Source: Oscillospiraceae bacterium
Lineage (GTDB): Bacteria; Bacillota; Clostridia; Oscillospirales; Ruminococcaceae
DNA: 64,000 nucleotides
Assembly: GCA_017512745.1 (NCBI GenBank)
Contig: JAFWEV010000026.1
Coordinates: 11,377 to 75,376 of the forward strand
Direction of reading: 5' to 3'
A program made the translations under genes and the position numbers. Positions 16,917-36,101 of this stretch are shown here, piece after piece; the stretch's first letter is position 1, and each line of letters starts with the position of its first letter. The notes beneath the pieces are model-generated. The model saw nothing but the letters and a program-made list of their open reading frames with translations, had not been told where the DNA came from and searched no databases.

Positions 16917-17543
16917 TTATTGATTGTATTTTGCCAGACAGTGCTTGATGATCATAGCATCGGCATAGGTGACCAGTGAGAATACGATCAAGCCCCAGAC
17001 AGGCAGATAAAACGCGGCGATCTGTGGGAAGAAGAACAGCACTGCGAACGGAGCTGCATTCAATATCACCATGAGTATCGTTAGCGGCAGATTTGATACA
17101 GCCAGATAAAAGGAATAGGCGAGAAGCTGCTTAACGGGCTGGTCGTTCATGGCGATAAGCGGAAACAGGTAAGAAGATAGCGCTATGACCACAACAAAAA
17201 CAAAAACAAGAAGGACCTGGATATAAGTGCCGCCCGGTATGGCTGCAGCCGAACCGGCGGTATTTGTTATGAACAGGTAATCGGTAAGAATAAGAGCAGT
17301 CATAACAAGAACGACCGACCACGGCAGAAGCGTTTTCTTCAGCTTGCCGGCAAATGTGCTGAAAAACACCTCCAGGGAAGAACTGCTGTCTTCGATCACA
17401 TTGGATATCATCTGGTAAAGTGCAGCCCATGATGCACCTGCTGTAACAAGAGGTATGCAGCAGATGATAAACAGCACATTGTACATTATCAGATTGAACA
17501 TTGTACTGAGCATTTTGAATAGGAAGGAATCGGGCTTGAACAT
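16917..17543 (-). CDS. YesL-family (DUF624) membrane protein
   Basis: The N-terminus FNLIMYNVLFIICCIPLVTAGASWAALYQM is characteristic of DUF624 proteins that accompany sugar ABC importers. Confidence 0.75.
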   Translation of the reverse strand: MFKPDSFLFKMLSTMFNLIMYNVLFIICCIPLVTAGASWAALYQMISNVIEDSSSSLEVFFSTFAGKLKKTLLPWSVVLVMTALILTDYLFITNTAGSAAAIPGGTYIQVLLVFVFVVVIALSSYLFPLIAMNDQPVKQLLAYSFYLAVSNLPLTILMVILNAAPFAVLFFFPQIAAFYLPVWGLIVFSLVTYADAMIIKHCLAKYNQ

Positions 17544-17786
17544 GGGATCACCTGAACAAAAGAGTGTTTTTGCCGAATCGATTTGTTTTATTATAACATC
17601 TCAAAAATATTTGACGCTGAAAAAAGCATATTATTTCACAATAGAAACTGAACTATGCATTTTTAACAATAAAAGCCGCAAATTTTATACACAGTCACTA
17701 TATCATATTTATTGAAGTTTCCTATAAAATATAAGTGTATTTGGCTTTGTATGTGCCAAAAAATAAAAATTTGGAAGAGGTATAAC

Positions 17787-19214
17787 ATGAAGGGAAAACA
17801 GTTACTGGCTCTTTTGCTTGCTGCTGTAATGATGCTTGGAATCCTTGCCGGATGCGGTGGCTCCGGAAATGAAACTCCTGCACCTGCATCTACTCCGGAT
17901 TCATCATCCGAGGGCGGCGAAGCAACAAACGACATCTCCGGAAAGTCTATTATTTTGATTTCATCTGCGAGATCTTATGACGGAATGGATGATGCGTATC
18001 AGGCAGCTTGTAAGCAGTTTTACGATGAGACTGGTTGTGAAGTCACAACACAGTTCAACGGAAACTTTACAGAGCTGATCCAGACATTCCAGGCAGCAAA
18101 GATCTCTGGCGCAACATATGATATGAGTTCTCTTGGTTCAGGAAACCTCCATCAGGCAGTTGCGAAGTCCGGAATGGTTATGGACATCACTCCGCTTGCA
18201 CAACAGCTCAAAGGCAGAATTGTTGAAGGCGGTATTGAGCAGCACACGATTGACGGACATACCTTCGGTATCCCGTTCAGCGGTGTATCCACCATGGGAT
18301 TCTTTGTAAACAGAACCATGCTTGACGAGCTCGGACTCGACCTCCAGAACGGCTACACATATGATGAACTCAAGGCAGTTGCCGATGCAGTCAAGGCTGC
18401 AAAGGGCTTTACAGCTGTTGTTCACTGTGGCGCTGACTGGTGGTGGTGGCCGTCTTGGTTCTTTACCACATTTGCTCAGGAGACACACAATGACTCCATC
18501 AATCAGATCGAAGAATGGCTGAAGGGCAACAGGAGCATGGAGCAGGAAGATGCTATCAATGCTTTCAATGATATCCTTAAGTTCTTCCAGGATGGAATCA
18601 TGGATGCTGATTCACTCCAGTATGACGGAACTTCCGTGGCAGCTCTCTTTGCTCAGCAGAAATGCTTAGGCTTCTTTGCTTCTGCAACAAACATCAAGAA
18701 TGTCGGCGATGTTGACTTTGACGTTGACTATCTCACATATCCTGTAATGGTTGAAGGAGCTATTGCTCAGTCTTCCGGCGGTGCTGACGAAGGTATCAAC
18801 ATTCTTACACTCGGAGATCCCGCAAACGTTGCAGCTTCTGCAAAGTTCATCGAGTTCATGACAAGACCGGAAGTCAATGGCCCGATCATGCAGCTCAGCG
18901 GAAACTTCGGATACGCAGTAAAGGGTGTTGACGGAGTTGAGTCTCAGATCTCTGATGAGGCATTCGAACTCTACACAGACAACACAATCATGTATCTTGA
19001 CTGGTTCTGGGCAGCAGAGCACAACGATGCAGTCGTTAAGGCGATCCAGGGCCTCGTAGCTCAGGAAATCGACGGTGCAGAAGCAGCAAAGCGCGTTCAG
19101 GACAACTGGCAGCAGACTGTTGATGAGAATGATTATTCTTATGAATGGTGGAATTCCGATTCTTGGAGTTGGGATGCTGTTGCAATGCCGTATGAGGTAG
19201 ATCTCGGACTTTGA
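17787..19214 (+). CDS. ABC sugar transporter substrate-binding lipoprotein
   Basis: The ATG at 17787 follows GGAAGAGG. The signal peptide has a lipobox (LGILAGC) and a Ser/Gly/Glu linker, and the fold is the family-1 solute-binding type. Confidence 0.85.
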   Translation: MKGKQLLALLLAAVMMLGILAGCGGSGNETPAPASTPDSSSEGGEATNDISGKSIILISSARSYDGMDDAYQAACKQFYDETGCEVTTQFNGNFTELIQTFQAAKISGATYDMSSLGSGNLHQAVAKSGMVMDITPLAQQLKGRIVEGGIEQHTIDGHTFGIPFSGVSTMGFFVNRTMLDELGLDLQNGYTYDELKAVADAVKAAKGFTAVVHCGADWWWWPSWFFTTFAQETHNDSINQIEEWLKGNRSMEQEDAINAFNDILKFFQDGIMDADSLQYDGTSVAALFAQQKCLGFFASATNIKNVGDVDFDVDYLTYPVMVEGAIAQSSGGADEGINILTLGDPANVAASAKFIEFMTRPEVNGPIMQLSGNFGYAVKGVDGVESQISDEAFELYTDNTIMYLDWFWAAEHNDAVVKAIQGLVAQEIDGAEAAKRVQDNWQQTVDENDYSYEWWNSDSWSWDAVAMPYEVDLGL

Positions 19215-19316: not shown

Positions 19317-20240
19317 ATGAGTGCAAAGTCAAAGGCACCTAAGAGCCCTCTGATGAGAGAGAGCATTGGGGATATGTTGTTTCCCTATCTGATGATAGTA
19401 CCGGCATTCCTCTTATTCATGGTTTTTACCATCTACCCGTTTGCATTCGGATTCTATGTAAGTTTCCATAAGTGGGACGGTCTTACAGCCATGAAATGGC
19501 TGGGGCTGAGGAACTACATAAATGTTGTGACTGACCCTGAATTCTGGGCTGCCATGAAACACACGGTCATCTACGCTTTATGTGTTACCATTGTCAAAAA
19601 CATTATCGCGGTTATCCTGGCACTGTTTCTGGCTAGAGACCATCTGCCGGGACGGACACTGTTCAGAACTGCTACATACTTGCCGGTAACCTTGTCCTAT
19701 GTTGTTATCGGTGTTCTCTGGAAATGGATATTTAACCCCACATTCGGTCTTTTGAATCCATTCATGCGTGCAATCGGTCTAGGCAATTACATTGTCGGAT
19801 GGTTAAGCGATGAAAGGATCGCATTGTATTCAGTTATCTTTGTTGATATATGGAAATGGATAGGTTTCCATATGGTCATGTACCTGGCAGGTCTGACCAG
19901 TATATCTAAAGACTACTATGAAGCTGCTGCTATTGACGGAGCTTCCGGATGGCAGCGTTTTAGACATATTACGGTTCCGCAGCTCAACAGTACAATATTC
20001 ACAAATATCCTCATGTCGATGAGTGGTGCGTTTACAGCAAACTACGCGATCGTCAACATGATGACGGGCGGCGGACCAAACGGCTCGACAGAAGTCGCAG
20101 CTACCTTAATTGTTAAGACCGGTCTTAAGTATATAAATCTCGGAAAAGCGAATGCCATGACATTTGTATTGTTCCTGTTTACGTTTGCAATGGGAATGTT
20201 CCAGCTTAAGACTATTTCACATGACGAGAACTACGAATAA
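19317..20240 (+). CDS. Carbohydrate ABC transporter permease (MalF/UgpA-like)
   Basis: A 6-TM protein with the EAA-type loop YYEAAAIDGASGWQRFRHITVPQL. Confidence 0.85.
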   Translation: MSAKSKAPKSPLMRESIGDMLFPYLMIVPAFLLFMVFTIYPFAFGFYVSFHKWDGLTAMKWLGLRNYINVVTDPEFWAAMKHTVIYALCVTIVKNIIAVILALFLARDHLPGRTLFRTATYLPVTLSYVVIGVLWKWIFNPTFGLLNPFMRAIGLGNYIVGWLSDERIALYSVIFVDIWKWIGFHMVMYLAGLTSISKDYYEAAAIDGASGWQRFRHITVPQLNSTIFTNILMSMSGAFTANYAIVNMMTGGGPNGSTEVAATLIVKTGLKYINLGKANAMTFVLFLFTFAMGMFQLKTISHDENYE

Positions 20241-20254: not shown

Positions 20255-21094
20255 ATGGTTGAATCTAAAAAATTCGAAGTCGGCTCTCTGGTTATATGCT
20301 ATATAATCATGGCTATAGTTCTTGTACTGACGGTGTATCCGCTTCTGTGGATGATCTTCAGTTCATGTAAAACAGTCAATGAGTTCTACTCGAACTCGTG
20401 GCTGCCCCCTGTCCAGTGGTATTTCGGCAATTTCATCACCGCCTGGACAAGAGCAAAGATGGGTGTCCGCTATCTGAACAGCCTTCTCATTACGGGAACA
20501 TATCTTCTGATCAATATTCCGGTATCAATGTGTGCTTCCTACTCTTTCTCGAGACTTCAGTTCAAGGGAAGGAAAAAGCTGTATACAGCAATGCTGTCGG
20601 GAATACTGATCCCGACAGGAGTTCTCACACTCCCCATCTATTCTGTTATGGTCAACTTCCGTCTTATCAATAACAGAATAGGTCTTGCATTCGTTTACGC
20701 CGGTATGTCTGTGGCGTTTTCCACATTCATCATGCATACGTTCTTCGTATCGCTGCCGAAAGGCCTGGAAGAAGCTGCAACGATTGACGGATGCTCCAGA
20801 TTCGGAGCTTTTGCCAGAGTCATTGTTCCTCTGACAAAACCCGGTATTATGATCCTGCTTATCTACAACGGTATTTCAAACTGGGGCGAATACCATTTGG
20901 CAAGCCTTGTTCTTACAACAAATGCCAAACAGACGGTTCCCGTCGGAATGGCTTTGTTCCAGGATAATCAGGCAATTGAATATACGGTTTTATTTGCAGC
21001 ATTAACGTTGGCTACAGTCCCGCTGGTTGTGCTATATGTTTTCTGCCAAAAGGCGTTCATTACAGGTATGACTGCTGGTGCTGTTAAAGGCTGA
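20255..21094 (+). CDS. Carbohydrate ABC transporter permease (MalG/UgpE-like)
   Basis: Contains the EAA loop LEEAATIDGCSRFGAFARVIVPLTKPG. Confidence 0.85.
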   Translation: MVESKKFEVGSLVICYIIMAIVLVLTVYPLLWMIFSSCKTVNEFYSNSWLPPVQWYFGNFITAWTRAKMGVRYLNSLLITGTYLLINIPVSMCASYSFSRLQFKGRKKLYTAMLSGILIPTGVLTLPIYSVMVNFRLINNRIGLAFVYAGMSVAFSTFIMHTFFVSLPKGLEEAATIDGCSRFGAFARVIVPLTKPGIMILLIYNGISNWGEYHLASLVLTTNAKQTVPVGMALFQDNQAIEYTVLFAALTLATVPLVVLYVFCQKAFITGMTAGAVKG

Positions 21095-21131: not shown

Positions 21132-21166
21132 CGGCGCCGAATAGTCTTTATTCGGTGCCGTTTTTA
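21132..21166 (+). terminator. Rho-independent terminator after the permease genes
   Basis: The stem CGGCGCCGAAT / ATTCGGTGCCG is followed by TTTTT. Confidence 0.65.
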
Positions 21167-21191
21167 GGTGGACATCATTTTTGTGAATAGG

Positions 21192-23864
21192 ATGGTTTGG
21201 TTAATGATCAACATAACTAAGGTATTGATAAATCTATCGGAACAGATCAGCACATTTGAATCCCGTCCTTCATTTGCTCTGTATATCGAAGCGGACAGAG
21301 AAGTTGCCGTAAACAGGGTTATGCTCGAAGTATATGAGTCCGGCGAGTCAGTGTATTCTTCGGCACTGGATGTTTCATCTCTTGCGGATATACAGTTGCC
21401 TGAAGAAGTGCATCTGCATCCGCATAAAACCTATAAGGTAAGATTCAGGGTGATCGACAATACCAGCGGAGAAGAGAGCGGCTGGAGCGGTTTCAGCACA
21501 TTTCTTACAGGGTTTTCGGAAGATTCAGGCTGGCAGGCCAGTTTTGTCAGCGCCGGATGTCCTGAAGAGGAAAAAGGTGTGTCGCCGGTCTACTGTTTTG
21601 AAAAGACATTCCCCAGCTGCAAGAAACCGGCCGAAGCCAGACTGTATATCACGGCAAAAGGATTGTATACCGCTTTTGTCAACGGAGAGAGAGTCGGGGA
21701 AGATGTCCTTACACCCGGTGATATGAGTTATCAGCATCACCTGGCCTATCAGACATACATAGTGACCGATCTTGTACAGAAGGGAGACAACGTCCTTTCC
21801 GTACTTGTGGGGGACGGATGGTACAAAGGCTACGTATCATCTTCCTGGCACAGAAACTATTACGGGGATCAGAGGGAACTTCTCTGCGAGCTGCATCTCA
21901 GATACTCAGACGGATCAGAAGAGATAATACCGTCCGACGATACTTTTACATGGCATAAAACGAACATTCTTATGTCCGAGATCTATCCCGGAGAGACCCG
22001 AGACATGACAGTTCCTGAGTCTGAAAAGAAAAGTGTATCGGTCTGCGGTGTTCCTAAAAAAGGATATCTGCATCCGGCTTTCTCCTGTCCTCCGCATTAT
22101 GAAGATCCTGTCAGTCCTGTGAGACTGATAAAGACTCCGAAAGGCGAGACAGTGATCGATTTCGGAAGAGTCATGACCGGAGTCACTGAGGTGAGAGTCC
22201 GGGGAGAGCGTGGAGACCGTGTGGAATTCCGCTTCGGAGATACACTTGATACTGAAGGAAACTTTTACAATGACAATGTCGAATTGTTCAGTCTGCGGGA
22301 TCATGACAGACCGATAGTGCAGAAGATCACATACATCCTTGAAGGAAAAGGAAATGAAGTATACAGACCGCTCTTTACATATCAGTGCTTCAGATATGTT
22401 AAGGTCGTCGATTTCCCGGGAGAGATAACTCTTGAGAATGTAACAGCTTACCCGATCACCTCATTCACGGAGCAGACCGGCATTTTCTCCTGCGGCGACG
22501 AGCTTATAAATACGCTGTACAGAAATGTCATCAATACTGAAAAAGCCACATTTATCGACATCCCAGTCGCAGGTCCGATGAGGGCGGAGAGACTCGGATG
22601 GACAGGGGACAATCAGCTGATGTTCCCCACAGCCATGAGGACGATGTTTGACTCATACCGCTTCCTTCTTAAGTGGCTGGAAGAGGTGAAGTATTCCCAG
22701 GGAGAAGACGGGCAGGTCGGAACGCTGTCCCCATATATCAACTTCAAGGAAGGGTCAACAGTAAAAGACTTCAAGCCCGAGGCGTCTGCTATATGGGGAG
22801 ACGCTGCGGTCATATGTCCGTGGAGACTGTATGAGTTCTACGGGGACAAAGCGATTCTGAGCAGATACAGAGACCTTGCAAAGGGTTATGTCGACTATAT
22901 GCATCTTTCCGGCGATGATGAACTGACATTCACCGAGGGAGAGACCTTCGGAGACTGGTTTGCGCTGGATAACGGTCCTGATGCATATGCGGGAAAGACA
23001 GACAAGAAGCTGCTCGGATCATTCTATTACTACAGATCAACATATCTGCTGTCCAGAATACTTGAGGAGCTGGGTGATGAACAGAGTGAACACTATCTGT
23101 CACTCTCTCTCAAGATAAGGGATAAACTGAGAGATCTGTATTTTGAAGACGGACTGATTACGGAAGTGACCCAGGCTGCATGTGCGCTTGCGATTGAGTT
23201 CGATATTGCTCCTGACAAGAGCAAAACAGCTGCGCAGCTGGCAGAACTGATAGAGAGAGATGGAGGGCATATGCTTGCTGGATTTACCGGAGCATCAGTC
23301 ATTCTGCAAGCTCTCTGCAATACCGGATACAGTGATCTCGCATTAAAGCTCGCCATGAACAGGGATTACCCCTCGTGGCTGTACACCGTGGAGAAAGGTG
23401 CGACCACTGTATGGGAACACTTTAACGGTATCAAGGAAGACGGCACTCTGTGGTCTCCGAACATGAATTCGTTCTGTCATCTGACTTTCGGGACGATAGC
23501 TGACTGGATGTTCGGATATCTTCTGGGCATACGCCAGAAAGAAGGAGGCGTTTCCTATAAGGAATTCGTGATCGATCCTGTCATAAGCAGAAGACTGGGA
23601 TATGCGCGCGGATCGATGGATACAGTTTACGGAAAGATATCGGTTTCATGGGAAGTGTCGGGAAACACGGTAAGGCTGACGGCGAAGGTACCGTACGGTA
23701 CCGATTGTGAGATCTCTCTTCCTATGGTGAACGCCCCTGAGACTCTTACTGCAGAAATTCGTTCGGAAGGATATAAAGAAGTCGATATCAGTGAGACCGG
23801 CATCAGGATCCGGGTGTCACAGGGAACACATGAATTCGTTTATGCAATGGCTCAGATGGCCTGA
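21192..23864 (+). CDS. GH78 alpha-L-rhamnosidase
   Basis: Contains AERLGWTGDNQ and YPSWLYTVEKGATTVWEHFNGIKEDG, both GH78 hallmarks. The GTG at 21168 in the ORF track starts only 2 nt after the terminator, so the ATG at 21192 or 21204 is the more likely start. Confidence 0.85.
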   Translation: MVWLMINITKVLINLSEQISTFESRPSFALYIEADREVAVNRVMLEVYESGESVYSSALDVSSLADIQLPEEVHLHPHKTYKVRFRVIDNTSGEESGWSGFSTFLTGFSEDSGWQASFVSAGCPEEEKGVSPVYCFEKTFPSCKKPAEARLYITAKGLYTAFVNGERVGEDVLTPGDMSYQHHLAYQTYIVTDLVQKGDNVLSVLVGDGWYKGYVSSSWHRNYYGDQRELLCELHLRYSDGSEEIIPSDDTFTWHKTNILMSEIYPGETRDMTVPESEKKSVSVCGVPKKGYLHPAFSCPPHYEDPVSPVRLIKTPKGETVIDFGRVMTGVTEVRVRGERGDRVEFRFGDTLDTEGNFYNDNVELFSLRDHDRPIVQKITYILEGKGNEVYRPLFTYQCFRYVKVVDFPGEITLENVTAYPITSFTEQTGIFSCGDELINTLYRNVINTEKATFIDIPVAGPMRAERLGWTGDNQLMFPTAMRTMFDSYRFLLKWLEEVKYSQGEDGQVGTLSPYINFKEGSTVKDFKPEASAIWGDAAVICPWRLYEFYGDKAILSRYRDLAKGYVDYMHLSGDDELTFTEGETFGDWFALDNGPDAYAGKTDKKLLGSFYYYRSTYLLSRILEELGDEQSEHYLSLSLKIRDKLRDLYFEDGLITEVTQAACALAIEFDIAPDKSKTAAQLAELIERDGGHMLAGFTGASVILQALCNTGYSDLALKLAMNRDYPSWLYTVEKGATTVWEHFNGIKEDGTLWSPNMNSFCHLTFGTIADWMFGYLLGIRQKEGGVSYKEFVIDPVISRRLGYARGSMDTVYGKISVSWEVSGNTVRLTAKVPYGTDCEISLPMVNAPETLTAEIRSEGYKEVDISETGIRIRVSQGTHEFVYAMAQMA

Positions 23865-23972
23865 TCAGAGTGTCCGGATCATGCATTTTCTGCCTGTTCC
23901 GTTTGACATTTTTGCCAATCTTGAAGGCTCATAATTTAACAGGCAGATGTACCTGTTATGATATAATTTAAA

Positions 23973-25100
23973 ATGAAGAAAAGTGTATTTACAGAAAGGA
24001 ATGGTTATATGACGAGGAAGATCAATGAAGGCGACATAATCAATGTCGGTGTAATCGGCTGCGGTCAGATAGCACAGATGATGCATCTGCCATATATCAC
24101 ACACGATGAACATCTAAGGCTTTATTCCATATGTGATATATCTCAGAACATCCTCGATAACGTAGGTGCGAAATATCATGTTCCTGCGGAACACCGCTAT
24201 CTTGATGCCGGAGAAATGGTCAAAGACGATAAGCTGGATGCTGTGGTCATAGCGACAAACGATCATTATGATCCGGCTGTCAAAGCTGCGAAAGCCGGCA
24301 AGCACATGCTAGTGGAAAAACCGTTTATGTATTCTGTCGCCGAATGCGACGAAGTGATAGCCCTCTGCAAAGAGAACAATCTCATACTGCAGGTAGGGTA
24401 CATGAAGCGCCATGATCCGGGATTCCAGTATGCATTTGAGAAGATCAAGACTCTGAAGGACGTCAATCTCGTGCGTGTTCATGATTACGGCGGAAGTTTT
24501 GACTTCACGACCCAGATCTACGATCTGTATCCGAAGTCTGACCTTTCCCAGGAGACGCTCGATGCCATAAGGAAGAAGATCGATGACACATGCATAGCCG
24601 AGATCGGTGAGGACAGAGCAGATATAATGCAGAGTTACAGCCTGATATGCGGACTCTCCTCTCACGATACGATACTGATGAGGCACTGCTTCGGATATCC
24701 TGAAGTACTGTTTGCATACGTTCCGAAGCCGGGATTTGTAACGGCATTCCTGAGATTTGAGAACGGAGTGCAGGGAATACTGGAGTCAGGCCTCGTTATG
24801 AACCGCCGTTCATGGGATGAGAGCATCTGGGTTTATTCAAATGAATGCAATCTCTCTATCCACTTCCCGTGGCCGTATCTGAAGAATGCCCCGACAATAG
24901 TAAAGATCAATGAGAACGAGCCGGGATCGATGGTCAACTATGATAAGGAAGTTATAGGATCGTTTGATGAAGCGTATCGCAGAGAGTGGAAGCATTTCTA
25001 TCAGTGCATCGTTGAGGGCAAAGAACCGATCAACAGCGGTGCTGATGCCAGAAACGACATCAAGCTTGCGAGCGATATCATTCGTGCGGTAAAGATCTGA
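23973..25100 (+). CDS. Gfo/Idh/MocA-family NAD(P)-dependent oxidoreductase
   Basis: Contains VGVIGCGQIAQ (Rossmann motif) and HMLVEKP (the EKP motif). The alternative ATG at 24009 has a better RBS. Confidence 0.85.
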   Translation: MKKSVFTERNGYMTRKINEGDIINVGVIGCGQIAQMMHLPYITHDEHLRLYSICDISQNILDNVGAKYHVPAEHRYLDAGEMVKDDKLDAVVIATNDHYDPAVKAAKAGKHMLVEKPFMYSVAECDEVIALCKENNLILQVGYMKRHDPGFQYAFEKIKTLKDVNLVRVHDYGGSFDFTTQIYDLYPKSDLSQETLDAIRKKIDDTCIAEIGEDRADIMQSYSLICGLSSHDTILMRHCFGYPEVLFAYVPKPGFVTAFLRFENGVQGILESGLVMNRRSWDESIWVYSNECNLSIHFPWPYLKNAPTIVKINENEPGSMVNYDKEVIGSFDEAYRREWKHFYQCIVEGKEPINSGADARNDIKLASDIIRAVKI

Positions 25101-25113
25101 TTGAGGTGAAGGA

Positions 25114-25965
25114 ATGAAAATCGGTTATACAGTTTGGACATGGATGAGAGAGGAATTTAACAGCGAGACGCCCACCGAAGGTGCAGAAGCTCATTTCGAG
25201 GAGGCCGTCAGATCTATCTCTTATCTCGGATATGAGTGTATTGAGAATTTCAACTTTATGGTCCCGATATACGAGGATAGACCTGATGACCTTAAAGCGC
25301 TGCTGAAGAAACACAATCTTGAGTTCGTCAATCTGTACCATACCTACCATTGGGATGGCACGGACGAGACTCTGCAGAAGTGGCTGGACAAGGGCGAAAG
25401 GACATGCAGATTCCTGCAGGAGATGGGAGCAAAATATCTCAACATGCAGGGATATACGTGGCATGATGCCCCGTATTACAGACCGGACAACAAAGAACTT
25501 CTGGATATACATGTAGATGCTTTTACAAAGATGGGTGCCATAGCCAAGAAATATGGTGTTCAGGCATGTCTCCATCCTCACGGAGGCACACCGATGTTCT
25601 CCGAGAGTTCCATCGATTACTTCTTCAGCAAAGCGGATAATGATTTGGTCAAACTCACCCTTGATACTGCGCATACCACTCTTGGCGGAATGGACCCCGT
25701 TTATGCCATTGAGAAGTACAGGGATCTTCTGGTATACGTTCATCTCAAGGATCTTGACCCCGATGAGACCAACATAAAAACAAGACCGAATGACAGATTC
25801 TGTTCATTGGGACAGGGCTTCATCGATTTCAGAAATGTCATCCTTGCGCTCAGAAGGATCGGATATGACGGTGTTCTGTGTGTCGAAAATGACAATCCGA
25901 GGATCTGCAACTATCAGTCCGCAGAATTCTCTCGCGAGTATATTAAGTCCGTGCTTGGTATGTAA
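25114..25965 (+). CDS. Xylose-isomerase-like TIM-barrel protein (sugar phosphate isomerase/epimerase family), tandem copy 1
   Basis: Contains the LHPH, DTAH and CVEND metal-ligand-like motifs of the AP_endonuc_2 fold. Confidence 0.8.
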   Translation: MKIGYTVWTWMREEFNSETPTEGAEAHFEEAVRSISYLGYECIENFNFMVPIYEDRPDDLKALLKKHNLEFVNLYHTYHWDGTDETLQKWLDKGERTCRFLQEMGAKYLNMQGYTWHDAPYYRPDNKELLDIHVDAFTKMGAIAKKYGVQACLHPHGGTPMFSESSIDYFFSKADNDLVKLTLDTAHTTLGGMDPVYAIEKYRDLLVYVHLKDLDPDETNIKTRPNDRFCSLGQGFIDFRNVILALRRIGYDGVLCVENDNPRICNYQSAEFSREYIKSVLGM

Positions 25966-25998
25966 TTGCCATTGCCATATATTAATTGGAGGGGAAAA

Positions 25999-26853
25999 AT
26001 GAAATTAGCCTACACTGTTTGGACGTGGATGCTTGAGGAGTACGCTCCGGATGCTCCTACTTCCATGGGAAAACCGCATTTCGAAGAAGCCGTTCAGTCG
26101 ATTTCCTATCTGGGATACAGATACATCGAGAACTTCAACTTTATCGTTCCGATGTATGAGAATGATCCTCAGGAACTTCTCGATCTGCTCAAGAAGAACC
26201 GCCTTGAGCTGGTGAATCTGTATCACACCTATTACTATGACGGAACACAGGAAACGCTCGACAAATGGCTTGATCTCGGAGAGAGAACATGTAAGATACT
26301 TCAGCTCTGCGGAGCGAAGTACATCAATCTTCAGGGGAACATCTGGCAGGATGAACCATTCTACCGCCCCGACAACCATCCGCTCATCGATGCCTATGTC
26401 GATGCGTTCATGAAGATGGGAGCAATCGCAAAGAAGTACGACATTCAGGCATGCATGCATCCTCACGCCGGAACAGCGATGTTCTCGGAGAGCCAGATCG
26501 ATTATTTCATTGAGAAGTGCGATATGGATCTCGTTCATCTCACACTCGATACAGCTCATATCACTCTTGCGGGAATGGATGCGTGCTATGCATTCGACAA
26601 ATATGCAAAGTATATCGACTATGTACACTTCAAGGATCTGGATCCCGATGAGAACAACTGGGAGCGTCGCCCTGTAGAGAGATTCTGTGCACCCGGACAG
26701 GGATTTATCGATTTCAAGAATATCCTTAAGGTCCTCAGGAAAAACGGATATGACGGTGTTATCTGCATAGAGAATGACAGACCCAGGATCTGCAGCTATG
26801 AATCCGCTGAGACAGCGATAAGATACGCCCACAGCACTCTCGATCTGTACTGA
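25999..26853 (+). CDS. Xylose-isomerase-like TIM-barrel protein, tandem copy 2
   Basis: GGAGGGG at 25988-25994 precedes the ATG at 25999. It is a paralogue of copies 1 and 3. Confidence 0.8.
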   Translation: MKLAYTVWTWMLEEYAPDAPTSMGKPHFEEAVQSISYLGYRYIENFNFIVPMYENDPQELLDLLKKNRLELVNLYHTYYYDGTQETLDKWLDLGERTCKILQLCGAKYINLQGNIWQDEPFYRPDNHPLIDAYVDAFMKMGAIAKKYDIQACMHPHAGTAMFSESQIDYFIEKCDMDLVHLTLDTAHITLAGMDACYAFDKYAKYIDYVHFKDLDPDENNWERRPVERFCAPGQGFIDFKNILKVLRKNGYDGVICIENDRPRICSYESAETAIRYAHSTLDLY

Positions 26854-26875
26854 TAAAGAAGAAAGGAATAGTAAA

Positions 26876-27721
26876 ATGAAGCTAGCTTATACGATCTGGA
26901 CATGGCAGCTTGAAGAATATACAGGAACAAGTTCCCGCCATCTCGAACGTTTCGAAGAGGCGATAAGATCCATAAAGTATCTTGGATATGACTATGTTGA
27001 GGATTTCAACTTCATCGTTCCGTGGTTCATAGATAATCCGGAGAAACTGAAAGCGATCCTGGACAAGTACGACATGAAGCTCGTCAATCTCTATCATACT
27101 TATTATTATGACGGAACTCAGGAAACACTGGACAAATGGCTCGATCTCGGAGACAAGACTTGCCGCCTGCTGAAGTACTGCGGTGCGAAACAGCTCAATC
27201 TTCAGGGCAATATCTGGCAGGATAAGCCGTTCTTCCGCCCGGATAATCCGGAGCTCATCGATGCGTACATCGATGCATTCATGAAGATGGGAAGAATTGC
27301 GAAGGACTACGGTATCCAGGCATGCCTGCATCCTCATGGCGGTACGGCCATGTTCTCTGAGAGCCAGATAGATTATTTCATCGAGCATTGTGACATGGAT
27401 CTTGTCAGACTGACCATGGATACAGCCCATACAGCTCTTGCCGGAATGGATCCGTGCTATGCATTCAACAAGTATGCAAAGTATATCTCATATGTACATC
27501 TCAAGGATATCGATCCCGATGAGTCACTCTATCCTGAATGGCCGATGAAGAGATTCTGCGCGCCGGGACAGGGATATCTCGATTTCAGGAATATCATCAA
27601 GACCCTGGAAAACAACGGATATGACGGAGTCGTCTGCATTGAGAACGACTACCCGAAGGTATGCAGCTATGAGTCCGCGCAGTCTGCAAGAAATTATATG
27701 CGCGCAATAGTCAATATGTGA
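26876..27721 (+). CDS. Xylose-isomerase-like TIM-barrel protein, tandem copy 3
   Basis: It shares an identical 24-aa run, LVNLYHTYYYDGTQETLDKWLDLG, with copy 2. Confidence 0.8.
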   Translation: MKLAYTIWTWQLEEYTGTSSRHLERFEEAIRSIKYLGYDYVEDFNFIVPWFIDNPEKLKAILDKYDMKLVNLYHTYYYDGTQETLDKWLDLGDKTCRLLKYCGAKQLNLQGNIWQDKPFFRPDNPELIDAYIDAFMKMGRIAKDYGIQACLHPHGGTAMFSESQIDYFIEHCDMDLVRLTMDTAHTALAGMDPCYAFNKYAKYISYVHLKDIDPDESLYPEWPMKRFCAPGQGYLDFRNIIKTLENNGYDGVVCIENDYPKVCSYESAQSARNYMRAIVNM

Positions 27722-27745
27722 CCATAATGAAACCATAAATCAGAC

Positions 27746-27777
27746 GGAGTGTGAAACAGACATCTGTTTCACACTCC
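27746..27777 (+). other. Perfect 15-bp hairpin without a U-tract, between the TIM-barrel array and the ABC operon
   Basis: GGAGTGTGAAACAGA-CA-TCTGTTTCACACTCC is followed immediately by the GGAAGGA RBS of the next gene. Confidence 0.7.
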
Positions 27778-27790
27778 GGAAGGATTACAA

Positions 27791-28738
27791 ATGATAAAAG
27801 TATCAAATCTTACAAAAAGATACGGAGATAAGCTTGCAGTCAGGGGAATAAGCTTTGAGATAGACAACAATGGGGTTGTGGGTTTTCTTGGACCGAACGG
27901 AGCCGGGAAATCTACAACTATGAATATGATTACAGGATATATCTCAATGACATCCGGAAGTGTAACTGTCGACGGCGTCGATCTTCTTCATGATCCCATG
28001 ACTGTCAAAAAGAATATAGGATATCTGCCGGAACTGCCGCCTCTCTATAAAGATCTTACCGTAACGGAATACCTGAATGTGGTATATGGCCTCAAAAAAT
28101 GCAAACTCAACAGAGAGGAGCATTTAAACCATATCTGCGAGGAAGTCGGCATATTGCCGGTAAAAGACAGACTGATCAGTAATCTTTCCAAAGGTTATCA
28201 GCAGAGGGTTGGGATCGCGCAGGCCCTTGTGGGCGATCCCAAAATACTGATACTCGATGAGCCGACGGTCGGGCTCGATCCTTCTCAGATAATTGAGATC
28301 AGAAATCTTATAAAAGACCTCGGAAAGACAAGGATCATCATTTTAAGTACGCACATTCTCTCTGAAGTACAGCTTATGTGCGAGCGAATCATCATTATCA
28401 GCCAGGGAAGAATAGTTGCCGACGACAGTGTCGACAATATTGAACTTGTCGGAGAAAAGGGAACGCTCGTAGCGGAGATCATAGGCAACACGGATGAGGT
28501 TATAAATACACTGGAGAAGATCGACGGAGTCAGAAAGGTCGATTTTTCCGAGAATAAATATACTATCCTGAGCTCCGGAGATCTGGAAGTCCGTAAGAGG
28601 ATATTCTATGCTCTCGCGGAGAATAAGATGCCGCTCATTTCGATATATGAGGCAAAACAGACGCTTGAATCATTATTCATTGAACTGACTGATGATACAT
28701 ATGCCGATACATATGAAGAGGGAGGGGAGGAACAATGA
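27791..28738 (+). CDS. ABC transporter ATP-binding protein (ABC-2/GldA-like)
   Basis: Contains Walker A GPNGAGKST, signature LSKGYQQR and Walker B ILILDEP. Confidence 0.9.
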   Translation: MIKVSNLTKRYGDKLAVRGISFEIDNNGVVGFLGPNGAGKSTTMNMITGYISMTSGSVTVDGVDLLHDPMTVKKNIGYLPELPPLYKDLTVTEYLNVVYGLKKCKLNREEHLNHICEEVGILPVKDRLISNLSKGYQQRVGIAQALVGDPKILILDEPTVGLDPSQIIEIRNLIKDLGKTRIIILSTHILSEVQLMCERIIIISQGRIVADDSVDNIELVGEKGTLVAEIIGNTDEVINTLEKIDGVRKVDFSENKYTILSSGDLEVRKRIFYALAENKMPLISIYEAKQTLESLFIELTDDTYADTYEEGGEEQ

Positions 28739-29448
28739 TCGAGATCTGCAAGAAGGAATACAAACAGTTTTTTGTTTCCCCCAGAGGATATGTCATAGTA
28801 GCGATCTACTTCTTTATCAGTTCGCTGTATTTCTGCACGGTAAATCTGTCAAATGTTCTGGTCGAACTCTCCTATGATTTTGCATTCCAGTCTAACTGGC
28901 TGCTTATGTTTCTGCTTCCGATGCTGACTATGAGGCTGCTCGCCGAAGAGAAGAAGACTAAGACGGATCAGCTGCTTCTGACAAGCCCGGTTTCCGTAAA
29001 TGATATCGTTTATGGAAAGTTTTTCGGTGCGCTGATCGTTTATCTGATATGTATTTCCTGCAATGCTCTGTTTTTTGCGATCGTATCCACCCATTCAGCT
29101 GTCTTCCTCTGGAGAGAATTTGTCTGCAGAATGCTTGGGATGATACTGCTTGGCAGTGCTATCATCTCGATCGACATGTTCATATCCGCTCTGACGGAAA
29201 GCCAGCTGCTGGCTGCATTTGTCGCTATGGGCGTAAACATCCTGATGCTGATTACGCGGTCATACGTGGCGACGATCACATCGCCCGTCCTTCAGTTCCT
29301 GGCGGGACTGCTATCGGTATTCGGACGGTTTTACGATACGTTTGCAATGGGTGTTTTCAACATACCGAACGCTGTGTATTATGTCAGTTTCACCGTCTTC
29401 TTCCTGTTTATAACCGCTCAGATCATTGAGAAGAGAAGATGGGGTTGA
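28735..29448 (+). CDS. ABC-2 type permease (GldF-like)
   Basis: A 6-TM protein of about 237 aa. Its start overlaps the ATPase stop by 4 nt (ATGA). Confidence 0.7.
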   Translation: MIEICKKEYKQFFVSPRGYVIVAIYFFISSLYFCTVNLSNVLVELSYDFAFQSNWLLMFLLPMLTMRLLAEEKKTKTDQLLLTSPVSVNDIVYGKFFGALIVYLICISCNALFFAIVSTHSAVFLWREFVCRMLGMILLGSAIISIDMFISALTESQLLAAFVAMGVNILMLITRSYVATITSPVLQFLAGLLSVFGRFYDTFAMGVFNIPNAVYYVSFTVFFLFITAQIIEKRRWG

Positions 29449-29461
29449 TGAGGATAACGGT

Positions 29462-30940
29462 ATGAATGAGAATAAATCAAAAATTGGGTTATTAGACAGG
29501 ATAAGACTGGGATTGGCCGCCAACACGAAGGTGAAGTTCGGCACGATCACGGCTGTTATAATTCTGGTCGCATTCATTCTGTTTGTCGGGATCAATCTGG
29601 TGTTCAAGATCCTTGATGTCACTGTCGGAATGGATATAGACATGACAACTCAGAAGCTGTATTCCATCGATCCTACGGCAAAGGAATTCCTTCAGTCACT
29701 GGATAAGGAAGTGACAATAACGGTTATTCAGGAAGAATCCGGATTTGATGTCAGGACGGTGCAGGCGCTGAATAATTATGACGTAATCTCGCCGAACATT
29801 ACCTATCAGTATGTTAACCTTGAACTTAATCCAAGCTATGCCAATTTTCTGAAGAACGAGGATCTCAAGGATTCTTCCATCATCGTGCAGTGCGGTAACA
29901 GATATCGGATAGTGGACGAATCCGAAATGTTCTACACGGGAACCGGAGCAAAGATACTCGGACTGAGGATAGATCAGAAACTGTGTTCTGCCATCAATTA
30001 TGTCACCAGTGATGAGGTATCTTATCTTGCTGTCATCTCCGGACATGGAGAACAGGTAACCAATGAGCTGAATGAGATATGCGGGACTACCAACAAGACA
30101 GTGGTCACGGTATCGCTTCTGACCGACAATCTTCCTGAAGATACGGACACGGTTATCATCTCAGAACCGACAGTTGACTATACTCCTGCGGAGATAAAGA
30201 AGCTTGAGGATTATATGCTGAAAGGTCAGAAAACCATAGTAGTTTTCATGGATGCGCAGGTCGGAGAGCTTCCGGTGCTCGAAGAATATCTCTCTGAATG
30301 GGGACTGAATCTTCAGAATGACATTGTTGTTGATACCGATCACTATTGGGGCGGCAATGAGACATATCTGCTTGCCGGATACGATAAGGCCACTACCGTC
30401 GGGAAGTCCGCCCTTGAAGAGAATCTCAACCTGGCAATACCGCTTGCAAGATCAATAGAGATCGACAGCTCAGACAATAATCTTTCCAACTGCACGCAGT
30501 TTGCGATCATCAAATCGTTCGGGTCTGCGTATTCAAAGGCAATAAACGGTGATCTTAGTGATACGGTCAAATCCATCGGTAAAGAACCGGGTGACAAAGA
30601 GGGAACATTTATTCTTGGAGCGGGCAGCACGAAACTCTTCTCGAAAGTGGAAGGTCAGAATATCGAGAGCACTCTGATCGTATACGGATCGGCAGCAATG
30701 CTGAGTGATTCAATGCTGACATCTTCCGTGCTCGGAAACAGGACCGTAGTTCTGGACTCTCTTCTGTATCACTCGCAGAAACTGGATATGATGAATATCC
30801 CGATTGTCGCCATAAAGGATTATTCGATCAACATTGATTCCGCATCAGCAAATATCGTGAGGATAGTTCTGATGTATGCGATCCCGCTTATCATACTTGT
30901 TTACGGCGGATATATTTGGATCTCCAGGAAAAAAAGATGA
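29462..30940 (+). CDS. GldG-like ABC-transport auxiliary component
   Basis: It has N- and C-terminal TM anchors flanking a large extracytoplasmic domain. Its position after GldA/GldF-like genes is typical of the family. Confidence 0.6.
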   Translation: MNENKSKIGLLDRIRLGLAANTKVKFGTITAVIILVAFILFVGINLVFKILDVTVGMDIDMTTQKLYSIDPTAKEFLQSLDKEVTITVIQEESGFDVRTVQALNNYDVISPNITYQYVNLELNPSYANFLKNEDLKDSSIIVQCGNRYRIVDESEMFYTGTGAKILGLRIDQKLCSAINYVTSDEVSYLAVISGHGEQVTNELNEICGTTNKTVVTVSLLTDNLPEDTDTVIISEPTVDYTPAEIKKLEDYMLKGQKTIVVFMDAQVGELPVLEEYLSEWGLNLQNDIVVDTDHYWGGNETYLLAGYDKATTVGKSALEENLNLAIPLARSIEIDSSDNNLSNCTQFAIIKSFGSAYSKAINGDLSDTVKSIGKEPGDKEGTFILGAGSTKLFSKVEGQNIESTLIVYGSAAMLSDSMLTSSVLGNRTVVLDSLLYHSQKLDMMNIPIVAIKDYSINIDSASANIVRIVLMYAIPLIILVYGGYIWISRKKR

Positions 30941-32340
30941 CGAAAAGCACAAAAAAACTGATTCTGATGATCGTTGCGCTTCTTGTAGTGGCGGCGGCTA
31001 CTGTAGCTGTTGTACTTATCGTTCGCAATAAGCAGCAGCCGGCAGATGATACTCCGGGGAGCATCACTACATATGAAGTGCTTAATACGGATGTCTCAGA
31101 AGTTGAGTTTATAGAGATCATCAATTCTGCGGGAGACACCTACATAATCCGCAATAACGGCGGATATGACGGGGTGATCGACGGGATAGACGAAGAGGTC
31201 CCGCTTTCTGCCATAACATACTCGGGGTTTGTCTCAAGATTTACCAGCATCAAGAGCTATCATGAACCTATACCTGTGACTGCTGAATCGGACATGGGAG
31301 AATACGGACTCAAAGACCCGTATGGTACAGTTGTGCTTCATAAGAAAGACGGATCGGAGATAAGACTGCTGATCGGTGAGCAGACTGTAAAAAAGAACGG
31401 ATATTACCTGTGGGAAGAGGGCTCCGGCAATCTGTACATTGTAGAAAACATGTATCACACTTCAATGGATTATGATGGTCAGTCCTTTATCGATAGACAG
31501 CTTGAAATCGTGGATCAGTCGAGGATATTTACGGTAAGACAGCTTTCTATAGTGAATAATGTGGACCCGAACAGATCGTTTACGATACAGCTGAAAGATG
31601 ATTCTGTTGAAGATCTGTCGATATATCAGTATGAAGTGGTGAGTCCGGAATACTTTGACGCAGATGACAATAAGATATATGAAAATATTTTTACATATCT
31701 GAACCCGCTTACAGCGGAGGGCATATACACGCTGGATGTATCCGAAGAAAACCTCAGAGCACTCGGGTTGTATGAACCGCAATACATCCTCGAGTACATA
31801 AACAACAGCCTGAAGACGACCATATATTTCGCCAGAACTGAAGACGGGACGCCCGTTGCGATGTATCCCGGAGGAAAGGTCGTATACAAGCTCGGGGATT
31901 CTTCTGTGCATTTCCTTGATATCGGCCTGTCTGACGTCGTCAGCGCGTTTATTGTTCTCCAGGATATCGATGATCTCAAAGCATTGAGTGCGGTCATTGG
32001 GAATGGAGAAGAAATGACCTTCGAGCTGCCGGATACGGAAGGTGATCACGAGGTCAGGGTCAACGGCAGTGAAAAAACCATTGATATTGAGGACTTCAGA
32101 AATCTGTATTCTCTTGCGATCTCCATAAAGATCATGAACGACGCACGCGAGGACGAGCAGAGTGGAGAAAGGATCATGGAGATAAAGTATGTGTGCGCGG
32201 ATGATTCCGAACATGTAGTGGATTTCTATGAGGTTGACGGAAGATATGCGTACGTCACTCTGAACGGGAACGGCAGATTTACAGTCAAACTTTCTGATGT
32301 TGAGGCATTTCAGGCAAAACTTGAGGAACTCATACGGTAA
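30937..32340 (+). CDS. DUF4340-like membrane-anchored protein
   Basis: It has a single N-terminal TM helix (LILMIVALLVVAAATVAVVLIV) and a large beta-rich ectodomain. The start overlaps by 4 nt (ATGA). DUF4340 commonly follows GldG-like genes. Confidence 0.5.
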   Translation: MTKSTKKLILMIVALLVVAAATVAVVLIVRNKQQPADDTPGSITTYEVLNTDVSEVEFIEIINSAGDTYIIRNNGGYDGVIDGIDEEVPLSAITYSGFVSRFTSIKSYHEPIPVTAESDMGEYGLKDPYGTVVLHKKDGSEIRLLIGEQTVKKNGYYLWEEGSGNLYIVENMYHTSMDYDGQSFIDRQLEIVDQSRIFTVRQLSIVNNVDPNRSFTIQLKDDSVEDLSIYQYEVVSPEYFDADDNKIYENIFTYLNPLTAEGIYTLDVSEENLRALGLYEPQYILEYINNSLKTTIYFARTEDGTPVAMYPGGKVVYKLGDSSVHFLDIGLSDVVSAFIVLQDIDDLKALSAVIGNGEEMTFELPDTEGDHEVRVNGSEKTIDIEDFRNLYSLAISIKIMNDAREDEQSGERIMEIKYVCADDSEHVVDFYEVDGRYAYVTLNGNGRFTVKLSDVEAFQAKLEELIR

Positions 32341-32402: not shown

Positions 32403-33395
32403 ATGAGCAGACTTGTTACTATTTTTACTGGACAGTGGGCAGATCTGGACTTTGAGACAATGTGTCAGAAGGCCAAGGAAATGGGCTACGAAGGACTGGA
32501 GATCGCGTGCTGGGGCAATCAGCTGGATCCGGAGAAGGCAGCAAAAGATGATGAATATGTTGCCTGGATCAAAGCTACACTGGATAAATACGGTTTGCAG
32601 TGCCGTGCTATCGGCGCTCATATCATCGGCCAGTGCGTAGGTGATGATCCCGATCCTCGTCTTGACAATTTTGCTCCGTCTGCCCTCGCAGGAAAGCCCG
32701 ATGAGATCAGAGCATGGGCGATCCAGCAGATGAAATACTGCGCGATCGCAGCAAAGAAGCTCGGAGCTTATGTGGTGACCGGATTCACAGGATCCCCGAT
32801 CTGGAAATACCTGTATTCGTTCCCACAGACGACAGAGGATATGGTCGAAGCAGGTTTTGACCGCATTGTTGAGCTTTGGAGCCCGATCCTTGATGTATTC
32901 AAGGAAAACGGGATCAAGTTCGCACATGAGGTCCATCCGGCTGAGATAGCATTCGATTACTACTCTACGAAGAAACTCCTTGAGAAATTCAAAGACAGAC
33001 CCGAATTCGGACTCAATTTTGATCCGAGCCATCTTATATGGCAGGGTATCACCCCTCACATCTTCCTTGAGGACTTCATTGACAGAGTCTATCATGTGCA
33101 CATCAAGGATGCAGCGGTTACTCTCAACGGAAAGAACGGAATACTCGGATCACATATCGACTTTGGCGATCTGAGACGCGGATGGAACTTCCGTTCTCCC
33201 GGACATGGTGATGTCAACTTTGAGGAGATCATCAGAGTACTCAATGCCTACAATTATCAGGGACCGCTTTCTGTGGAATGGGAAGACAGCGGAATGGACC
33301 GTGAATACGGCGGAAAAGAAGCTGCAGCTTTTGTTAAGAAGATCGATTTTGCACCGTCTAATGTAAAATTCGACGAAGCGTTGAAATCTGACTGA
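32403..33395 (+). CDS. Xylose-isomerase-like TIM-barrel protein (sugar phosphate isomerase/epimerase family)
   Basis: Contains GYEGLEIACWG..., HEVHPAEIAF, HVHIKD and SVEWED motifs of the fold. Confidence 0.8.
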   Translation: MSRLVTIFTGQWADLDFETMCQKAKEMGYEGLEIACWGNQLDPEKAAKDDEYVAWIKATLDKYGLQCRAIGAHIIGQCVGDDPDPRLDNFAPSALAGKPDEIRAWAIQQMKYCAIAAKKLGAYVVTGFTGSPIWKYLYSFPQTTEDMVEAGFDRIVELWSPILDVFKENGIKFAHEVHPAEIAFDYYSTKKLLEKFKDRPEFGLNFDPSHLIWQGITPHIFLEDFIDRVYHVHIKDAAVTLNGKNGILGSHIDFGDLRRGWNFRSPGHGDVNFEEIIRVLNAYNYQGPLSVEWEDSGMDREYGGKEAAAFVKKIDFAPSNVKFDEALKSD

Positions 33396-33411
33396 TTTGG
33401 AGGACACTATT

Positions 33412-36091: not shown

Positions 36092-36101
36092 TTGATTTAA
36101 A

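Follow-up and report, generated by a model that had tools for sequence, protein, structure and literature searches.

What would a gut anaerobe do with three diverged copies of one metal-dependent enzyme, set in a row behind a single sugar dehydrogenase? The question is raised by a locus in a 64,000-nucleotide stretch of the metagenome-assembled genome of an Oscillospiraceae bacterium (assembly GCA_017512745.1, contig JAFWEV010000026.1, positions 11,377 to 75,376), which was analyzed at its full length and is called the window here. An NAD(P)-dependent sugar dehydrogenase gene of the Gfo/Idh/MocA family, DH1 (23973-25100, plus strand; PF01408, 4.9e-24), precedes three tandem PF01261 genes on the same strand: T1 (25114-25965), encoding an IolE-like metal TIM barrel of 283 amino acids (aa) in the AP_endonuc_2 or xylose-isomerase-like family, and its paralogues T2 (25999-26853; 284 aa) and T3 (26876-27721; 281 aa). 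Their Pfam matches to PF01261 range from 5e-37 to 6e-31. Coordinates and Pfam assignments agree with the initial annotation of this stretch, which had described a Gfo/Idh/MocA gene followed by three tandem barrels of about 280 aa.

Oxidative, non-hydrolytic cleavage of glycosides has recently been recognized as a widespread alternative to glycoside hydrolases, and the answer that we tentatively favor is a pathway of this kind, in which a glycoside is oxidized, eliminated, hydrated and reduced, with T1-T3 as the eliminases. A CUT1 ABC system would import a rhamnosylated glycoside or oligosaccharide, and a cytoplasmic GH78 enzyme would remove the rhamnose. DH1 would then turn one ring hydroxyl of the sugar that is left into a ketone, and the metal-dependent T1-T3, through their H-x-H, D, H and E residues, would deprotonate the carbon beside the carbonyl and eliminate the beta substituent (an E1cB reaction). 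The leaving group would most likely be the glycosidic O1 group, giving a 2-hydroxy-3-keto-glycal, and less likely water. A larger PF01261 protein, TIM330, would hydrate the glycal, and a second Gfo/Idh/MocA enzyme, DH2, acting with ThuA, would reduce the keto-sugar. Gene content, homology, synteny, the age of the copies and the selection acting on them are direct results of the analysis; every catalytic step, the regiochemistry of DH1 and the substrate are inferred.

Copies, family and active site of T1-T3

The three barrels are clearly paralogous and long separated. T1 and T2 are 64% identical in both protein and nucleotide sequence, T1 and T3 share 58% of their amino acids and 63% of their nucleotides, and the values for T2 and T3 are 68% and 71%. 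Synonymous divergence is saturated (dS 1.15-2.7) and dN/dS lies between 0.11 and 0.19 in all three pairs; each copy is under purifying selection. The motifs HPH (residues 154-156), DTAH (184-187) and ENDxP (258-262) occur in T1, T2 and T3 alike. In a 42-member family alignment (A2), H154, P155, H156, D184, H187, H210, K212, D213, E258 and D260 are invariant and T185 and A186 nearly so, and the catalytic residues are intact in every copy. A block of 24 aa, LVNLYHTYYYDGTQETLDKWLDLG, is the same in T2 (26209-26280) and T3 (27080-27151); 10 of its 72 nucleotides differ between the two genes, all synonymously, which argues for selective constraint and not for recent gene conversion or mis-assembly. 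Paralogy, motifs and shared block are thus as the initial annotation had described them, and its view of an old triplication holds on the amino acid identities, the saturated dS and the orthologues that each copy has of its own. Together with the DNA identity of 63-71% and the synonymous changes in the block, these separate orthologues rule out an assembly artefact or a recent gene conversion. Proteins 100% identical to T1 and to DH1 are present in the protein database.

For T2, a GGAGGGG ribosome-binding site and the N-termini of homologues mark ATG 25999 as the start codon, and not TTG 25966; by the same two kinds of evidence, DH1 more probably starts at ATG 24009. The intergenic gaps from DH1 to T1, T1 to T2 and T2 to T3 measure 13, 33 and 22 bp, and no terminator-like site was seen on the plus strand within the DH1-T3 block, so that co-transcription of the four genes is likely.

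None of the three proteins reaches the cut-off of a curated NCBIfam family. Their best model is IolE (myo-inosose-2 dehydratase, TIGR04379), with 109.3 bits for T1, 108.2 for T2 and 107.1 for T3 against a cut-off of 290, and T1 alone also finds IolE first among PDB sequences (2.4e-12). A profile of the T family, run against the PDB, matches IolE 3cny at 2.7e-30 and Brucella IolE 9zmu at 3.9e-20. The entries 8tct, 8tcs and 8tcd, which we take from their molecule names to be AL1/BT1 lyases, match at 9e-16 to 4e-15 over profile positions 16-211 of 279 only. Further matches are Art22 (1.8e-14), AtHYD 8ro4 (3e-9), AtOGE 8bvk (9e-5; entry identified from PMC10628242), YcjR 6wn6 (0.004), DgpC 7xrf and 9m3b (0.008 and 0.19) and CarB 7bvs (0.14). 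The AF2 model of T1 has a pLDDT of 94.3, and Foldseek again places IolE in the lead (TM 0.82, 22% identity), with AtHYD, ketose epimerases, IolI, Art22 and YcjR (6wn6, E = 5e-14) next at similar scores; neither DgpC/CarB nor another C-glycoside deglycosidase is among the top 50. Judged by sequence and fold, T1-T3 form a small uncharacterized clade whose nearest characterized relative is IolE, at about 22% identity, and on the same grounds they belong to no characterized eliminase family.

The initial annotation had likened the block to pairs of a sugar dehydrogenase and a metal enzyme that cleave glycosides oxidatively. When the proteins were compared with DgpC/CGD-alpha, the lyases and the inosose enzymes, this logic proved to fit, but DgpC and CarB lie near noise and the known O-glycoside eliminases are distant. 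A closest homologue of the inosose type had been expected to speak against the idea, and the nearest relative is indeed IolE; IolE, however, shares the chemistry of keto-assisted beta-elimination.

The prominence of IolE leads to the first alternative, namely that T1-T3 are IolE-type dehydratases, with DH1 oxidizing a cyclitol, a free sugar or a sugar alcohol, copies for different stereoisomers or substituted cyclitols, and no glycosidic bond cleaved. We give this a modest chance. IolE tops the matches of T1-T3 in NCBIfam, PDB sequence and fold searches, the best NCBIfam model of DH1 is IolG and its best profile match in the PDB is TM0414 of T. maritima, and a Zn-dependent alcohol dehydrogenase (Zn-ADH) in the corresponding cassette of other genomes best matches IolM, with 206 bits. 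Nevertheless, the scores reach only about one third of the curated cut-offs (108 against 290 for IolE, 113 against 355 for IolG), and no gene of the iolA, iolB, iolC, iolD or iolJ type was found among 50 window proteins searched with Pfam, 22 of them also with NCBIfam. A CUT1 system with a large lipoprotein as solute-binding protein (SBP) and a cytoplasmic GH78 enzyme point instead to an oligosaccharide or glycoside, and a homologue of the AtHYD-type hydratase lies nearby.

The active site bears on whether these proteins eliminate or epimerize. H-x-H, D-T-x-H, H-x-K-D and a terminal Glu are common to the T family and IolE (residue alignment with 3cny and 9zmu), and H-x-H and H-I-K-D are common to the T family and 8tct, 8tcs and 8tcd. 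At the site where T1-T3 have H154-P-H156, TIM330 reads E-V-H (the E-x-H motif of alignment A1), and TIM282, an epimerase-like protein of the window, reads E-C-E. The T family is thus without the first Glu, the metal ligand and base of epimerases, and has retained the His two residues further on. The corresponding His is the base of the dehydratase AsbF, and the catalytic base of the eliminase AtOGE is likewise a His, H134. This His-for-Glu pattern, taken with the His bases of AsbF and AtOGE, would favor elimination or dehydration over epimerization.

For that reason we regard as unlikely a second alternative, in which T1-T3 are keto-sugar epimerases or isomerases of an oxidize-epimerize-reduce shunt like that of E. 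coli YcjQRS, through which an uncommon glycoside or sugar epimer would become a common one, with copies for different positions or substrates. PF01261 is dominated by epimerases and isomerases, YcjR is the clear structural match mentioned above, and the wider cassette found in other genomes combines a LacI regulator, Zn-ADH, Gfo/Idh/MocA, CUT1 importer and PF01261 genes, the same parts list that is carried by ycjNOP-ycjQRS-ycjW. The canonical first Glu is replaced by the invariant H154, however, and the motif pattern follows IolE and AL1/BT1. In addition, the profile match to YcjR stays at E = 0.004, the psicose-epimerase model (PsicseEpim, cut-off 300) gives 26 bits for T1, 22 for T2 and no match for T3, and no Zn-ADH stands beside the T cluster in the window.

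Gene context of the proposed glycoside-cleavage pathway

The strongest contextual clue for the oxidative glycoside-cleavage pathway is TIM330 (32403-33395, plus strand), a PF01261 protein of 330 aa encoded about 4.7 kb downstream of T3. It is homologous over its full length to AtHYD (phmmer against 8ro4, 5.1e-51; 2zds, 3e-107), the 2-hydroxy-3-keto-glucal hydratase of A. tumefaciens (PMC10628242), and its gene is followed by those of DH2 and ThuA. DH2 (33397-34551, plus strand) contains both domains of a Gfo/Idh/MocA oxidoreductase (Pfam; PDB 3v5n, 8e-100) and scores 127 bits over part of its length against the model of levoglucosan dehydrogenase (LGDH), whose cut-off is 650; at the family level, it may be a 3-keto-sugar reductase or dehydrogenase. 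Two ThuA-family genes (34536-36091, plus strand; PF06283, 9e-41 and 2e-39) come next. ThuA partners a Gfo/Idh/MocA enzyme in forming 3-keto-disaccharides. In L081, the corresponding locus of a related genome, the trio of TIM330, DH2 and ThuA genes directly abuts the T genes. The window therefore contains the parts met in the Lgd and AtOGE-AtHYD pathways: a dehydrogenase beside PF01261 proteins of 275-285 aa, a PF01261 protein of the hydratase type of 325-350 aa, and a second Gfo/Idh/MocA enzyme. It is because this parts list, with barrels of about 280 and 330 aa, matches three published pathways, namely those of Lgd, of the A. tumefaciens operon and of the gut AL/BT and P2B11 clusters, that T1-T3 are favored as eliminases.

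DH1, which would open the pathway, reaches no curated NCBIfam cut-off either. Besides IolG, it gives 44 bits with the LGDH model, 42.5 with BT_2158 (cut-off 750) and 33.2 with BT_2159 (cut-off 650). E103, K104 and P105 of its EKP motif and H219, the histidine of SSHD, are invariant in the family alignment (A3), and its AF2 model has a pLDDT of 95.1. Sequence profiles align well over the Rossmann domain only. Their matches in the N-terminal domain include DgpA (5e-29), and aldose C1 oxidoreductases, IolG-like enzymes, 3-dehydrogenases, 3-ketoreductases, LGDH and DgpA match nearly equally. A literature search for IolN/TM0413 gave nothing of use.

It is important to note that several findings weigh against T1-T3 as glycoside eliminases. 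Their nearest relative, IolE, is a keto-cyclitol dehydratase and not a glycoside lyase, and the similarity to proven eliminases is weak (about 1e-15 and partial for AL1/BT1, 9e-5 for AtOGE, 0.008 for DgpC). The position oxidized by DH1 is not resolvable from profiles or from AF2/Foldseek comparison, where enzymes acting on C1, C2 and C3 match equally. Between T3 and the genes of TIM330 and DH2 lie a hairpin and the four genes of an ABC-2 module, and genes of the TIM330 and DH2 types are near T genes in only 2 of the 80 species loci compared (all neighborhood counts given here refer to these 80 loci and are lower bounds, many contigs being short). Most genomes instead carry a cassette with ribokinase, Zn-ADH and a RhaT-like protein and without a glycosidase, which has no obvious fit to glycoside cleavage. 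Finally, the differences among T1-T3 show no clear overall enrichment on the catalytic-face loops, where three-way identity is 0.53 compared with 0.47-0.58 elsewhere; two local hot spots, residues 16-26 and 219-227, are both catalytic-face loops.

The upstream part of the locus agrees with the initial annotation, which had placed a GH78 enzyme and an ABC importer ahead of the block. All of the following genes lie on the plus strand. The CUT1 extracellular SBP (17712-19214; SBP_bac_1, 1.2e-20) has a lipoprotein signal and probably a true start at ATG 17787 (MKGKQLLALLLAAVMMLGILAGC...); its orthologues occur within the DH1-T cassettes of relatives. Two CUT1 permeases (19317-20240 and 20255-21094; BPD_transp_1) follow, and then a terminator-like hairpin of 13 pairs and TTTTT (21132-21160), possibly a partial operon boundary. 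The GH78 alpha-L-rhamnosidase (21168-23864) carries four GH78 Pfam domains and is closest in the PDB to SaRha78A (3w5m, 2e-113); it is presumably cytoplasmic, since it lacks a signal peptide. Just upstream of DH1, a candidate internal promoter was read from the sequence (TTAACA-19 nt-TATAAT, 23937-23967, with TATAAT at 23962-23967), overlapped by the palindrome AACAGG-N8-CCTGTT (23938-23957). The palindrome is a possible, weak operator candidate and is unrepeated in the window, where 3 loose matches were found against 1.6 expected.

On the minus strand, a DUF624 (YesL-like) membrane protein gene (16917-17543; PF04854, 2.5e-8) precedes the SBP gene. DUF624 commonly accompanies CUT1 sugar importers, and a DUF624 gene also follows the T genes in the related loci L006 and L007. 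Directly upstream of the DUF624 and SBP genes, the region 12907-16824 encodes a PfkB kinase, two SIS-domain proteins and an RpiB/LacAB isomerase, and resembles clusters of the ketosamine or amino-sugar deglycase type. Along the window, GC content climbs from 34-38% (1-8000) to 53-55% (56000-64000), a gradient that suggests a mosaic origin for parts of the sugar-utilization region.

Directly 3' of T3 and before the gene for the ABC-2 ATPase, there is a perfect 15-bp hairpin (27745-27778). Only the minus strand carries its T-run, with no minus-strand gene to its right, and it is likely a transcript boundary or stabilizer. The ABC-2 exporter-type module that follows comprises four plus-strand genes (27791-32340; GldA/GldF/GldG-like ATPase and permease, ABC_transp_aux/DUF7088, DUF4340). 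Besides the window, the related loci L001, L084, L086 and L087 have such a module after their T genes, and L081 does not; its membership in the system is uncertain, and it could be an exporter of the product or aglycone or a mere conserved neighbor.

Further downstream, the regions 32403-38291 and 39902-44089 are dense in genes of the keto-sugar type: beside TIM330 and DH2 they contain TIM282, a MalK-type ATPase, a Zn-ADH, DUF4867, three ThuA genes and a FucI-like protein with weak similarity to sulfoquinovose isomerase. At the position of the H-x-H of the T family, TIM282 reads E-x-E, and its terminal Glu is missing in the hhalign alignment. A second cluster of rhamnoside type (54470-63141) contains an MFS_2 (GPH) symporter, GH2, a PF01261 protein, GH78, and GH43 with an F5/8 type C domain. 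The PF01261 protein of this cluster (58195-59040) is weakly IolE-like, with 41 bits, and stands next to the second GH78 gene (59048-61303), so that GH78 beside a PF01261 protein is found twice in the window.

Distribution and history of the T family

The family is rare. A word-indexed search gave 93 clusters at 90% identity, and 1.84 billion representatives yielded 188 proteins at E <= 1e-30, about 19 of them scoring at least 290 bits. A motif scan of 185,579 species genomes ended in 142 confirmed T-family stretches. Hosts include Oscillospiraceae, Lachnospiraceae, other Clostridia, termite-gut Spirochaetes, Anaerolineae and Limnochordia; Massiliimalia, Anaerofilum hominis, Blautia sp. XA-2221 and Breznakiella homolactica are cultured bacteria with a T-family gene. 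Of the 80 loci, 34 have a Gfo/Idh/MocA gene no more than 6.5 kb from a T gene, and in 24 of these the two are directly adjacent; an orthologue of DH1 itself (at least 300 bits) stands beside one to three T genes in 12, and CUT1 permeases are near T genes in 33. DH1 and T genes paired, together with a CUT1 ABC importer, are met repeatedly in Clostridia and Spirochaetes.

In the closest relatives, one to three T genes share a cassette with DH1, the SBP, two permeases and DUF624. It also comprises an RbsR-like LacI regulator, a RhaT-like membrane protein, a ribokinase that passes the cut-off of its model (TIGR02152, 323 bits) and a Zn-ADH matched best by the scyllo-inosose 3-dehydrogenase IolM. 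Next to the T cluster of the window, no orthologue of the ribokinase, Zn-ADH or RhaT-like genes was found, and a link between this cluster and those genes was rejected. GH78 is found upstream only in the sub-lineage of the window (the window, L001, L081-83 and L084), in the same position in L001, L081 and L084; this association is restricted to a narrow Oscillospiraceae lineage. Downstream of the T array in L003 lie a PF01261 protein of 333 aa and a full-length relative of LGDH (393 bits).

Three tandem membrane-protein genes of about 331 aa lie between GH78 and DH1 in L001 (5791-8826), L081 (5672-8821) and L084 (4894-7938). These proteins have no Pfam match and a weak RhaT-like signal; the window has none of them, yet the most T copies. 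A homologue of inosine-uridine-type nucleoside hydrolases is present in the T locus of L046 (10818-11747, directly adjacent), L024, L027, L029, L038, L045, L047, L049 and L066, loci that belong to Breznakiella and several metagenome-assembled genomes of Bacillota. Together with the ribokinase of the related cassettes, it gives a hint that parts of the T family are linked to ribosides or ribose.

How the window came to hold three copies can be read from a tree that includes metagenome proteins. T1 groups with P0002-P0005, T2 with P0006 (78% identical), which is the first copy in L086 and L087, and T3 with P0008 (77% identical), the second copy in L084. The one copy that L001 has belongs to a sister clade, alpha. 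The loci thus retain different sets: alpha only in L001, T1 and alpha in L081, T2 and T3 in L084, L086 and L087, and T1, T2 and T3 in the window. These different subsets, and the orthologues belonging to each copy, place the duplications before the divergence of these species, followed by differential retention. A private, lineage-specific triplication, as in a first tree, was overturned once metagenome proteins were added and T1, T2 and T3 fell into separate orthologue groups.

Arrays have also arisen elsewhere in the family, as L003, L006, L007, L012 and L015 contain two or three copies from other, deeper subclades, whereas 72 of 81 sources (the 80 species loci and the window) have a single copy. 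The recurrence of arrays of diverged copies with intact catalytic residues argues for functional diversification over dosage, and T1-T3 probably differ in the keto-substrate they accept, by anomer, sugar epimer or leaving group. It seems quite unlikely that the paralogues act instead as a hetero-oligomer, especially T2 with T3. Genes of the T2 and T3 types are indeed invariably found as a pair and in a constant order (window, L084, L086 and L087), and multi-copy arrays recur in unrelated lineages. Against this stand the many single-copy sources, among them the closest syntenic relative, L001, the presence of T1 without T2 and T3 in L081, and the full catalytic set of every copy. As a general rule, obligate hetero-oligomers are unlikely, because most genomes have one copy; a T2:T3 pair may be an exception.

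A broader version of the eliminase reading is more speculative, and we hold it to be doubtful. The T family would consist of hitherto unrecognized 3-keto-glycoside beta-eliminases that evolved independently from IolE-like dehydratases in anaerobic gut bacteria, both Gram-positive ones and spirochaetes, with the arrays setting the sugar, anomer or leaving group; Oscillospiraceae would use them to split de-rhamnosylated plant glycosides in their cytoplasm without a glycoside hydrolase, and the ABC-2 module might export the aglycone. A role in flavonoid metabolism or in aglycone diversification, as the initial annotation had imagined, is conjecture, since outside a narrow lineage the cassette has ribokinase, Zn-ADH and a RhaT-like permease and no GH78.

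Most of the eliminases characterized so far are those of Bacteroidota, Agrobacterium, levoglucosan degraders and Clostridia that cleave C-glycosides. Oscillospiraceae, an abundant group in the gut, are poorly represented in culture, and their biochemistry has been little studied. Should the T family prove to be one more lineage of eliminases, the enzyme repertoire for non-hydrolytic cleavage would be larger, a set of annotations as "sugar phosphate isomerase / inosose dehydratase" would be explained, and three natural isoforms sharing one dehydrogenase would be usable for studies of specificity. Predicting from genomes which gut bacteria process rhamnosylated dietary glycosides would also improve. 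Otherwise, with T1-T3 as simple dehydratases or epimerases, the locus would count as an ordinary uncharacterized sugar operon. The T family comprises well-defined, assayable and rare enzymes of poorly studied gut anaerobes, with a natural array of three isoforms.

Relation to known systems

DgpA/DgpBC and CarABC resemble the locus in having a Gfo/Idh/MocA oxidase followed by a metal enzyme of the PF01261 superfamily in gut Clostridia, among which the host counts, and DgpA is one of the profile matches of DH1; a DgpA/DgpBC-type deglycosidase for flavonoid C-glycosides is nonetheless very improbable, as the near-noise profile scores and the Foldseek top 50 effectively exclude T1-T3 from the DgpC/CarB family, their length of about 280 aa falls short of the solved DgpC chains (324 and 336 aa) and of the 39-kDa alpha subunit of PuCGE (PMC10628242), and the gaps of 13-33 bp leave no room for a small DgpB-like beta subunit, whose absence had been noted initially.

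IolE is the closest comparison. It is the top sequence, profile and fold match, its active-site motifs are those of the T family, it has a Gfo/Idh/MocA dehydrogenase as partner, and its chemistry is a keto-assisted beta-elimination. The differences lie in the low identity and sub-threshold scores and in the lack of iol pathway genes nearby; unlike IolE, the T genes come with a CUT1-type importer, a GH78 context and tandem multi-copy arrays. YcjQRS, the shunt from D-guloside to D-glucoside, resembles the cassette of other genomes in its Zn-ADH, Gfo/Idh/MocA, PF01261, CUT1 ABC and LacI components, and differs in the epimerase-type first Glu, which is His in the T family, and in the poor YcjR profile score.

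[quoted passage not shown] In the same study, two such "isomerase" genes flank two oxidoreductase genes on the Gram-positive fosmid P2B11. The match of the T profile to these lyases is partial and weaker than that to IolE, DH1 is far below the BT_2158 and BT_2159 cut-offs, no DUF1080 partner was seen in the T locus, and the T system is cytoplasmic and Gram-positive, unlike AL1/BT1.

The levoglucosan pathway LgdA/LgdB1/LgdB2/LgdC (PMC7676230, PMC10066097) is similar by family and size, with PF01261 proteins of about 275 and 325 aa and a pair of Gfo/Idh/MocA enzymes. Further likenesses are the ABC importer and LacI regulator in the neighborhood and the T array of L003 beside an LGDH relative; DH1 and DH2, at 44 and 127 bits, stay far from the LGDH cut-off. 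No Bacillus or Paenarthrobacter protein is among the named or titled T-family matches, most matches carrying no name.

Finally, the A. tumefaciens operon of GlycDH, AtOGE, AtHYD and Gfo (PMC10628242; 8bvk, 8ro4) follows the order oxidize, eliminate, hydrate, reduce. It encodes a PF01261 eliminase of about 30 kDa, the PF01261 hydratase AtHYD (41 kDa as expressed) and a Gfo reductase, and TIM330 of the window is a strong AtHYD homologue. T1-T3 are only distantly related to AtOGE, the hydratase module of the window stands 4.7 kb away, and the window has an NAD-type Gfo/Idh/MocA oxidase where A. tumefaciens has the FAD-type GlycDH. Eliminases of such pathways already come from several PF01261 lineages, and the system described here may, at somewhat less than even odds, work like the known non-hydrolytic glycoside pathways, with eliminases drawn from an uncharacterized clade near IolE.

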